From Escherichia phage MN03: a DNA stretch of 64,000 bases. Shown one piece after another: positions 48,566 through 50,675 of this stretch (its first letter is position 1; every line of letters begins with the position of its first letter). Both the position numbers and the translations under genes were made by a program. Where the stretch lies: sequence record NC_070990.1, one strand, 5' to 3'. A model generated the notes under the pieces. It made no database searches. It was given only the letters and a program-made list of their open reading frames with translations, and had not been told where the DNA came from.

Positions 48566-50596
48566 TTAACCTCTATTCAATGAACATTTAGGAGAATTAC
48601 AATAAACTTGATTCATAGAACCAAGCGTACAACTTTCAGCATCGCGCCACGGAATCTGCTTAAAACACTCTGAGCAGTAGCCGAGGGTTGACCACATTGC
48701 TTTGGTGAAGTCAGTGCTTCGGTTTCCGTCGAAGCTGACGACAGTTTTGCGGAGAGCTGTTCGTGATTCAGGAAACACACCTGCTTTCTCAGCAGGTTCC
48801 TCCTTTTTTGGCTTAGTTGAGATTGCAAAAATACTGTTGCTACGTTTCTCAACATAAGCATCAACAACATCCTCCAGAGTGATGCCTGTCTGTTTCGCTG
48901 AGGAAGGTAATACAGTCATACGACCGATCATATCTTCAGTTACACGTAAAGCGAATTCAGGACGACGGGCGTTTGTTGTATCTGTTGCTTTAATCCAGAC
49001 ATAACCATCTTTGATCGTAGCATTAGACACTTTCTTCTTTACTTCTACAGCGCAGACTTTACAGATATCTTCACCACGAAGACGACTAAGTTCATCATCG
49101 AACTCATTCTCTGTTTTAACTTCACCGCAGATTTCACAAACACCAATAGGAGTTTCCTCCTCTTCTTCCTCTTTAGGTTTAGTCAAACCTTCCAGACATT
49201 CAGGATGCCAATAGCACTGATATGCGAAGACTGCTTTAGGTGCATCCTTCCAATCAATGTGCTTATCACAACCACCACAATCACCATGAGAGTGCGCTTC
49301 CCAGAATTTACGAGTGATAGTAACACCATTCTTGTTGACGAAACTATCATTCATATCAAAAGGGATATCATCATCGAAGTCAGCAGTAGTTGACTCAGGC
49401 TCCTTTTTCTCCAGAGATGGGTCAACAAAACGACCTGCTGTGATCACTAAACGGACCATAGCATTGACTTCGGAGATGCAGGATACTGTCCCACGGTAAA
49501 CAATTTTAGGGTCTTTCAGGGCATCCTGATAAGCCTTAATGTCTACGTTATGAACATCACCTTCGATATACTCTTGAGATTTCTCATCGTAGATATAACC
49601 AATCATCTTACCACGAGAAGGAACAGCACCGGCAGTTGCATAAGGAACAAACTCATGCGGAGTGATTTCCACAGTCATATCGCGGCGAATATCAATGTTT
49701 CGATCGCTTGCGATTTTGTTTTGACTTACCACTGCGTTTCTTCGACGAACGTCTGCCGCTGTCACACCCGGCTTCGTGTCGTAAGGATTGCTTGTACTGC
49801 TTTTTGAGGAACTTTGATAGTTGCTTTGGCTGTAATTGTTCGAGTAGTAATTGCCCCAACGATTGACTACCGTAAAAACCGGAAGCTCGTGGGCGACCTC
49901 TTCAACCAGTGTCATGCTGTTATTAGACATGTCAAAGATATACTCTGTACCAACTTTACACTCAAAATGCTCATCAATACGGTTCTTGTGAGACTTCGAA
50001 CGCTTCAGAATCCACATCAGCATATCTTCTTCAGAAGCGCCAAACCAATCTCTGTTACAACGTGCGAGATGGAAAGGACGTTCTTCGTTACGAATGATAT
50101 GAAGGCGGTTATCAGAAGCATCATGCCAGATTAAGGTGAAAGCACCATCCAGCTTTTGAATAGTCTCTGCTGCACCAATAGTGTTAATAGAGTGGCAGAT
50201 GTTCTCACTATCTACCTCGAAGTTTTTACTGTCAGGTAACAGGTCTTGGTCCATCAAGGTTCCATTATGAACCAGAGTGATGTTACCATGTTGGAAAGGA
50301 TGGGCGTTCTTGGCGTTAACTGCACCTTTCGTTGCATGACGGCTGTGACCAACAATCCATGAAGGCGCTACAGTGTACGCTGTTTCACCAGTGGTATGCT
50401 TCTTGTACTCATCTTGTAGGATGAATGCGAAAGAAGGAAGAGCTTCTTTATAAGTGAAGACTTCCTTAGTGCTTTTACGCTGACCAAAGATACCTGAGGA
50501 ATGTTGTCCTCGGAATACTCCAGCATAAAAGAGTTGGTTGAATACGTCTAAATCAGTGCTTGACAGATTACCGCCAGCTAATACGATGCCACAAAT
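48566..50596 (-). CDS. class-II glutamine amidotransferase (Ntn-hydrolase) domain protein with Cys-rich C-terminal region; non-ATG start
   Basis: Frame extends 113 codons upstream of the ORF-track ATG to (I)CGIVLAGG..., with RHATKGAVNAKNAHPF and HNG motifs; AGGTGGA SD 7 nt before an ATT codon. Confidence 0.6.
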   Translation of the reverse strand: MCGIVLAGGNLSSTDLDVFNQLFYAGVFRGQHSSGIFGQRKSTKEVFTYKEALPSFAFILQDEYKKHTTGETAYTVAPSWIVGHSRHATKGAVNAKNAHPFQHGNITLVHNGTLMDQDLLPDSKNFEVDSENICHSINTIGAAETIQKLDGAFTLIWHDASDNRLHIIRNEERPFHLARCNRDWFGASEEDMLMWILKRSKSHKNRIDEHFECKVGTEYIFDMSNNSMTLVEEVAHELPVFTVVNRWGNYYSNNYSQSNYQSSSKSSTSNPYDTKPGVTAADVRRRNAVVSQNKIASDRNIDIRRDMTVEITPHEFVPYATAGAVPSRGKMIGYIYDEKSQEYIEGDVHNVDIKAYQDALKDPKIVYRGTVSCISEVNAMVRLVITAGRFVDPSLEKKEPESTTADFDDDIPFDMNDSFVNKNGVTITRKFWEAHSHGDCGGCDKHIDWKDAPKAVFAYQCYWHPECLEGLTKPKEEEEEETPIGVCEICGEVKTENEFDDELSRLRGEDICKVCAVEVKKKVSNATIKDGYVWIKATDTTNARRPEFALRVTEDMIGRMTVLPSSAKQTGITLEDVVDAYVEKRSNSIFAISTKPKKEEPAEKAGVFPESRTALRKTVVSFDGNRSTDFTKAMWSTLGYCSECFKQIPWRDAESCTLGSMNQVYCNSPKCSLNRG

Positions 50597-50675
50597 TTTC
50601 TAATCCACCTGAAGGGTAAACCCTTTCATCTAATTAACCTTTAAATTGTGCCCCTTTGTCAGAGGCACCCATTGA

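Follow-up and report, generated by a model that had tools for sequence, protein, structure and literature searches.

A class-II glutamine amidotransferase gene of Escherichia phage MN03 very probably begins at an AUU codon that stands directly before the codon for its catalytic cysteine. The DNA analysed was a stretch of 64,000 nucleotides from record NC_070990.1 (the window, to which all coordinates refer), and represents a phiEco32-like podophage (Kuravirus, Gordonclarkvirinae); the gene and the elements of its leader lie on the minus strand. The coding sequence (CDS) occupies 48566..50596; counted from the ATT it has 676 codons, followed by the stop. It is the homologue of phi32_83 of phage phiEco32, whose CDS starts at the same ATT and with which it shares 98% nucleotide identity; the product is referred to here as gp83. 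Around the start the minus strand reads ...AAGGGTTTACCCTT C AGGTGGA TTAGAAA ATT TGT GGC ATC GTA TTA GCT GGC GGT..., in which ATT (50594..50596) is the inferred initiation codon and TGT (50591..50593) encodes the catalytic Cys with which the mature enzyme would begin (residue 1). Initiation at this AUU is strongly supported by sequence comparison, because relatives carry ATG-TGT at the same place, codons 1–113 are under selection, no canonical start is available and the Shine–Dalgarno (SD) sequence is optimally spaced.

An earlier note on this DNA had claimed that the start at 50257 given by a list of open reading frames (ORFs) is internal, and that the frame stays open 5' of it and encodes the N-terminus of a class-II amidotransferase, with the Cys codon preceded only by ATT, AAA and a stop. 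Coordinates and translation bear this out. Translation from the upstream stop gives *KICGIVLAGG..., followed by the motifs RHATKG, NAHPF and VHNGT. Only AAA and ATT separate that stop from the Cys codon in this frame, and neither ATG, GTG nor TTG occurs there. The strong AGGTGGA sequence that the note described is present at 50610..50604, 7 nucleotides 5' of the ATT, and forms an anti-SD duplex of -7.0 kcal/mol; the 7-nucleotide spacer (50597..50603) holds the in-frame TAG (50602..50600) and AAA (50599..50597). The first canonical in-frame starts, a TTG at 50257 and an ATG at 50254 (together 50252..50257), come only after 114 codons, and it is here that the truncated start of many annotations lies. 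An in-frame AUU, the lack of any available canonical start and an SD at functional spacing are the features of an AUU-initiated gene. When the other long ORFs of the window were scanned for a similar start-less 5' extension, none was credible; the amidotransferase ORF alone has one.

The ATT codon is conserved and the N-terminal domain is under selection

The earlier note had allowed that the ATT might be a sequencing error for ATG. An ATG is indeed one base away, and ATG is the codon found here in most members of the family. A 601-nucleotide query around the site matched 95 phage records, among them phiEco32 at 98.3% identity. The 75-nucleotide stretch made up of leader, ATT and first ten codons was 100% identical in 67 phage records and 95–99% identical in 28 more, while a 30-nucleotide query centred on the ATT matched 67 records exactly and another 30 with one mismatch, so that the codon is kept in 97 phage records. 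In all near-identical sequences inspected (ECBP2, KBNP1711, EK010, two metagenome contigs and Aeromonas phage BUCT695) the mismatch fell outside the ATT, being either a synonymous GGC-to-GGT change or GGTGG-to-GGCGG in the SD. Retention of the same ATT in independently sequenced genomes, including Suseptimavirus phages and BUCT695, and in metagenome assemblies excludes an error in sequencing or assembly, an explanation that we regard as already refuted.

Alternatively, the gene could have decayed at its 5' end, with translation from the TTG or ATG at 50257/50254 and no Ntn (N-terminal nucleophile) domain made. The ATT region is missed by most gene callers and lacks a CDS in 49 of the 56 annotated records sampled (see below), and the mass spectrometry table for phage SU10 lists a 63.8-kDa form of the protein. 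Selection on the extension argues otherwise. Over codons 1–113, which precede the first canonical start, the ratio of nonsynonymous to synonymous substitution rates (dN/dS) between Kuravirus and Suseptimavirus is 0.06–0.09 at saturated dS (1.6–2.9), the same regime as in codons 114–222; the frame is unbroken, and the catalytic residues do not vary across families. A protein truncated in this way would start within the Ntn fold, immediately C-terminal to the HNG motif. The SU10 protein was detected by 9 peptides, and its 'expected MW' of 63.8 kDa is that of the truncated 563-amino-acid ORF, the full protein being 76.1 kDa; since the truncated ORF was searched and the listed mass is a database value, these data are silent on the N-terminus. 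Purifying selection on codons 1–113 thus excludes both truncation of the protein and decay of the 5' end of the gene, possibilities that we consider extremely unlikely.

Homologues at 50–66% identity place a canonical start where the AUU is proposed to act. In Proteus phage P59, Cronobacter phage GAP52, Salmonella phage SE131 and contigs from IMG/VR, ATG-TGT occurs exactly at the homologous position, and the deposited CDSs begin at this ATG before the Cys codon. Together with the selection on the extension, the absence of another start and the SD spacing, this supports the AUU initiation that the earlier note had proposed.

The start-less extension encodes an Ntn amidotransferase domain

By profile comparison, the extension is genuine coding sequence of an Ntn amidotransferase. 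Pfam GATase_6 matches it with E=1e-14 and 55 bits (cut-off 27), and GATase_7 with 27.4 bits, above its gathering threshold of 25. In PHROG 4736 and the NCBIfam GlmS model, profile position 2, the Cys after Met, aligns to the TGT-encoded Cys. A profile of ten family members matches solved structures of GlmS, PurF and AsnB, and aligns residue 1 with residue 1 (Cys1) of the E. coli PurF chain 1ecb. Within the family alignment C1, G2, R28, N110-G111 and D128-S129 are invariant, and the HNG motif and the Asp align with those of GlmS. Arg28 (50510..50512; mature numbering), followed by G29, corresponds to the conserved glutamine-binding arginine, and Asn110-Gly111 (50261..50266) to the oxyanion-hole motif HNG, aligned to VVHNG of GlmS. 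The Cys codon directly follows the sole plausible start codon, as expected of a class-II enzyme: every Ntn (class-II) glutamine amidotransferase needs Cys1 as its alpha-amino nucleophile.

GlmS, PurF and AsnB thus resemble gp83 in having a Cys nucleophile directly behind the initiator Met, together with a conserved Arg and Asp and an Asn-Gly oxyanion hole. The common part is, however, only the glutaminase domain of about 220 amino acids; the C-terminal 450 amino acids of gp83 are without a SIS, phosphoribosyltransferase or Asn-synthase domain. The name given in RefSeq, 'L-glutamine-D-fructose-6-phosphate aminotransferase', is unjustified: NF001484 reaches 43 bits (cut-off 381) and TIGR01135 35.8 bits (cut-off 418), the GlmS models match residues 2–197 only, and a Pfam scan of the amidotransferase found no SIS domain. 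Residues ~230–676 (48566..49900, minus strand) have no Pfam or NCBIfam domain, and PHROG 4736 spans residues 2–517 only. This C-terminal part has several CxxC...CxxC pairs resembling zinc ribbons, plus an acidic KEEEEEE stretch.

ATT and ATC starts recur across the amidotransferase family

Loci of the family were retrieved from IMG/VR, metagenomes and genomes through internal peptide motifs, and the survey is therefore unbiased as to the start codon. Among 133 loci, the codon immediately before that of the catalytic Cys was ATG in 97, ATT in 22, ATC in 3, TTG in 4 and GTG in 3; two were odd cases (MCCG and MIL-C) and two could not be determined. Adding five phage-database loci and dropping sequences that were too short gave 134 sequences in 92 clusters at 90% identity, of which 10 had ATT, 3 ATC and 1 a mixture of ATG and ATT; ATT or ATC was hence the start in 13/92. 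At every ATT/ATC locus, the interval from the upstream stop to the Cys codon is free of in-frame canonical starts. Parsimony on a rough neighbour-joining tree gave ~11 switches between ATT/ATC and other starts. Beyond the phiEco32-like phages, ATC is found, for example, in the cultured Klebsiella phage Klyazma (OP125547). What the comparative analysis shows is where the start lies, that the ATT and its leader are under selection, and that ATT/ATC starts recur within the family.

A start codon next to a catalytic Cys cannot move, and the ATT could be a tolerated, slightly deleterious ATG-to-ATT mutation of no adaptive or regulatory meaning, visible for just that reason. Such a change takes one transversion, and two family members that are >90% identical, L051 (ATT) and L047 (ATG), show how easily the codon switches. 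As a control we used AsnB-like Cys1 amidotransferases from IMG/VR, retrieved through the internal motif FNGEIYN. Their 71 clusters comprised 67 with ATG, 3 with GTG and 1 with TTG, and none with ATT or ATC (Fisher p=6e-4 versus 13/92). Because the control is equally pinned by Cys1 and has 0/71, the enrichment of ATT/ATC is, on these counts, specific to this phage amidotransferase family and not a mere result of a fixed start. Retention of the ATT from Kuravirus to Suseptimavirus although dS is >1.6, and the co-occurrence of ATT/ATC starts with stronger SDs and SD-abutting hairpins (see below), further argue against simple tolerance, which we consider improbable.

A few loci had unusual 5' ends. 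One metagenome contig (L146) reads ATG ATT CTG TGT (M-I-L-Cys), which may represent a propeptide of 3 residues or else a non-canonical start, and another (L095) reads ATG TGC TGT (M-C-C-G), with two N-terminal cysteines. Four contigs of <1 kb in a Herbiconiux daphne assembly (NZ_JANLCJ01; L151–L154) carry differing, enterobacterial-phage-like copies of the amidotransferase; starts seen among them are TTG, GTG and ATT, and the fourth contig lacks the 5' end. They look like phage contamination of an actinobacterial assembly rather than host genes.

The ATT is part of a conserved leader

A near-invariant block, ATTAGATG...ATT TGT GGC ATC GT (50583..50634), is common to Kuravirus, Suseptimavirus and Aeromonas phage BUCT695. 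Kuravirus and Suseptimavirus do not differ at any of the 45 nucleotides 5' of the ATT, while adjacent synonymous coding sites are saturated. No second copy of the block was found in the window or in IMG/VR, and it is unique to this gene. It contains a 5-bp hairpin, AAGGG-TTTA-CCCTT (50612..50625; -4.6 kcal/mol), that ends 1 nucleotide 5' of the SD. On this comparative evidence the AUU is not damage; it is part of a leader of ~50 nucleotides under strong purifying selection, made up of the hairpin, 1 nucleotide, the SD, 7 nucleotides and the AUU. Scans near the start found no sigma-70 promoter or terminator on the coding strand, and an Rfam scan of the leader gave no match, just a far sub-threshold chance match. 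In BUCT695 (NC_070977, 1490..1560), a phage of a different family (Grimontviridae), the hairpin loop is TTAA, and the ~50-nucleotide leader with its ATT is near identical although the flanks have diverged and the protein has ~54% amino acid identity. Judged from these alignments, the match reflects either extreme constraint or a small recombination patch.

The block also holds a 9-codon mini-ORF in the frame of the gene, ATG AAA GGG TTT ACC CTT CAG GTG GAT TAG (MKGFTLQVD*; 50600..50629), which ends 3 nucleotides before the ATT. It is kept in Kuravirus, Suseptimavirus and BUCT695, and absent from contig L154 and the other ATT/ATC lineages. L154 has the same arrangement of hairpin, SD and ATT, with the stem changed and extended to AAGGGA-TTTA-TCCCTT, and it lacks the mini-ORF ATG and carries a pair of adjacent stops, TAG TAA, before the ATT. 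The mini-ORF as a required element is weakened by these absences. Since L154 keeps the architecture without the mini-ORF ATG, the comparison argues that the conserved elements of the leader are the hairpin and the SD rather than the mini-ORF, and it also argues against read-through of the UAG.

Such read-through would place the start at the mini-ORF ATG (50629) and yield a 12-residue propeptide, MKGFTLQVD-x-KI, to be removed autocatalytically as in Bacillus subtilis PurF. Propeptides occur in some Ntn amidotransferases, and the mini-ORF is in the same frame and conserved in BUCT695. A search of the window for a suppressor tRNA, however, found none. The sole tRNA is a tRNA-Arg (anticodon TCT; 59760..59835, minus strand). 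Moreover, the SD is positioned for the ATT and not for the mini-ORF ATG, and other ATT/ATC lineages lack such an in-frame ORF, so that we consider this route very unlikely.

Alternatively, the AUU might be used mainly by termination and re-initiation, with ribosomes ending the mini-ORF at UAG and restarting 3 nucleotides downstream, as at thrS–infC. The stop, 3 nucleotides and AUU are laid out as at infC, where re-initiation gives about half of the signal (PMC3592434), and the mini-ORF is conserved in Kuravirus, Suseptimavirus and BUCT695. Its ATG, on the other hand, has only a weak SD (AAGG, 9 nucleotides upstream), other ATT/ATC lineages lack the mini-ORF, as does L154, and conservation of the block is equally well explained by the hairpin and the SD. 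Re-initiation as the principal route is therefore unlikely in our judgement, and direct initiation at the AUU from its own SD is the reading that we follow below.

ATT and ATC starts tend to be accompanied by stronger SDs and adjacent hairpins

Pairing of the SD with the anti-SD was stronger at ATT/ATC loci, with a median of -7.8 versus -6.2 kcal/mol (one-sided Mann–Whitney p=0.004, ignoring phylogeny). A hairpin abutting the SD, with its 3' end 13–15 nucleotides 5' of the start, was found in 9/14 ATT/ATC clusters versus 5/70 ATG clusters, and the hairpins of these five ATG clusters resemble ordinary longer, GC-rich stems. The hairpin-bearing ATT/ATC loci include L039, L040, L108, L112, L116, L119, Klyazma (L286) and the window (50612..50625); their SDs are of the GGAGGA type, and the ATG loci closest to them are without such a hairpin. 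In Klyazma, for example, the layout is AAAGC-UAUAG-GCUUU C GGAGGA UAAUACU AUC. Stem sequences differ between lineages, with compensatory changes inside one lineage (GCUAC/GUAGC versus GCCUU/GAGGC). When each ATT/ATC lineage was compared with its nearest ATG relative, the hairpin was more stable in the ATT/ATC member in all non-tied contrasts. An apparent enrichment of TAG just 5' of ATT/ATC starts (11/13 versus 14/70) was dropped, being confounded by leaders shared within lineages; Klyazma has TAA.

Possible consequences for expression

On the AUU start, the codon at 50596..50594, 7 nucleotides 3' of AGGUGGA, would be decoded by initiator tRNA as fMet. Deformylase and then methionine aminopeptidase would remove the fMet and expose Cys1, as general Ntn amidotransferase chemistry suggests, and the expected mature N-terminus would be CGIVLAGGNLSSTDLDVFNQLFYAGVFR with a free Cys1. 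A weak codon in an otherwise optimal initiation site might then set a low or condition-dependent level of this early, glutamine-hydrolysing enzyme.

Such initiation has precedents. In E. coli, AUU is the established start of infC and pcnB and gives reduced initiation; it is a weak start codon there, discriminated against by initiation factor 3 (IF3) (PMC3592434; bioRxiv 10.1101/063800). Its strength was 6- to 8-fold below AUG in one reporter and 1–2% of AUG in another (PMC3592434; 10.1101/063800). A further source reports particular sensitivity of non-AUG starts to IF3, nutrient limitation and guanosine tetraphosphate (ppGpp) (PMC5499595). The gp83 gene is like infC in having an AUU after an SD and an upstream ORF whose stop lies 3 nucleotides before the AUU (UAA GGU AUU in infC versus UAG AAA AUU here), and at infC the weak start limits or regulates synthesis (PMC3592434; 10.1101/063800). 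The two differ in that the infC AUU serves as sensor in the autoregulation of IF3, with thrS as the upstream ORF, whereas here the product is a metabolic enzyme with no known feedback loop and the upstream ORF is a 9-codon mini-ORF. The pcnB gene is closer in kind, a non-regulatory enzyme held low by AUU, with orthologue starts that vary among AUG, GUG and UUG (10.1101/063800). It is, however, a single cellular gene, whereas ATT/ATC recurs here in ~14% of the clusters of one phage family, together with a hairpin and a strong SD. The mechanism proposed for gp83 is thus of a known kind; what the present case adds is an annotation problem and a recurrence at the level of the family, with a possible module of hairpin, SD and AUY.

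To our knowledge, infC and pcnB are the only confirmed AUU starts in E. coli. By analogy with them, expression from the gp83 AUU may be reduced or sensitive to IF3. The hairpin may have a role as well. We give about even chances to the proposal that the weak AUU sets or regulates the amount of this early glutamine-hydrolysing enzyme. More tentatively, and with the balance on the side of doubt, the arrangement of hairpin, 0–1 nucleotide, GGAGGA or GGUGGA, 6–7 nucleotides and AUY might be a selected initiation module, acquired or kept in at least 5–7 independent lineages of this family, that does more than lower expression and couples synthesis of a glutamine-consuming enzyme to the initiation-fidelity or nutrient state of the host (IF3, ppGpp).

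Several observations weigh against this account. The fold of the whole leader RNA is no better than that of shuffled sequence (z about 0), the hairpin is small at -4.6 kcal/mol, and four ATT/ATC lineages (L155, L068, L051 and L139) are without a convincing hairpin. The association of hairpins with ATT/ATC rests on ~7 independent lineages and a rough neighbour-joining tree, and because the lineages are so few it is a lead and not a result. The available proteomics, with its search of the truncated 63.8-kDa SU10 ORF, is uninformative on the N-terminus. The family does offer many natural sister pairs of ATT/ATC and ATG starts, including cultured phages of E. coli, Aeromonas and Klebsiella, which could be used to ask why weak starts persist and whether SD-adjacent hairpins support them.

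Treatment of the start in existing annotation

The ATT start call is not new, since public records already contain it. In the GenBank entry for phiEco32 from 2008 (phi32_83, ABY52884.1; YP_001671828.1) the CDS begins at the same ATT, and the start feature as deposited is itself identical to that of MN03; the RefSeq copy, SU10 and BASEL phage Bas91 are likewise annotated from the ATT. A literature search, with the original phiEco32 papers beyond its reach, turned up neither a discussion nor an experimental test of this start. We sampled 60 records, of which four were unannotated. Among the other 56, a CDS covers the ATT region in only seven, and the 49 without one are explained by standard gene callers disallowing ATT and ATC starts. 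In phage Paul the CDS begins at the ATG corresponding to 50254, with the loss of 114 codons, including Cys1 and much of the catalytic domain. The EK010 CDS begins 9 codons into the gene and that of BUCT695 10 codons in, and the deposited CDS of Klyazma, with its ATC start, is short by 16 codons. Function predictions and expression constructs made from 5'-truncated records would be wrong.

Neighbouring genes and elements

The gene lies in a phiEco32-type amidoligase cluster, and the gene order is that of phiEco32. Upstream, at 50676..51779 on the minus strand, is the homologue of phi32_84, identified by its Pfam Amidoligase_2 match and by its place in the phiEco32 gene order. A COOH-NH2_lig (type 2) gene lies at 52403-53209, and a weak RimK/ATP-grasp match at 46926-48122. 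For the product of the cluster there are conjectures only, for example cell-wall modification or a secondary metabolite (PMC10580990). The AUU start may point to a tightly controlled early glutaminase supplying this still uncharacterised amidoligase pathway.

Just 3' of the stop codon of the amidoligase gene, folding predicts an 8-bp hairpin, GTGCCTCT-GACAA-AGGGGCAC (50648..50668, minus strand), with compensatory changes in Suseptimavirus phage ECBP2 (GCGCTCT...AGGGCGC). It is probably no classical intrinsic terminator, because no T-run follows it. Several ATG-start relatives (L008, L009, L010, L014 and L015), and also BUCT695 (L023), carry TTTAAATGTAA ~20–30 nucleotides 5' of the start, a sequence that fits the AATGTA core of phiEco32 gp36-sigma promoters. 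Kuravirus and Suseptimavirus have TTTAAAGGTTAAT at the same position (50633..50645 in the window, minus strand), with two mismatches in the core, and a former promoter of the middle/late type may have decayed there.

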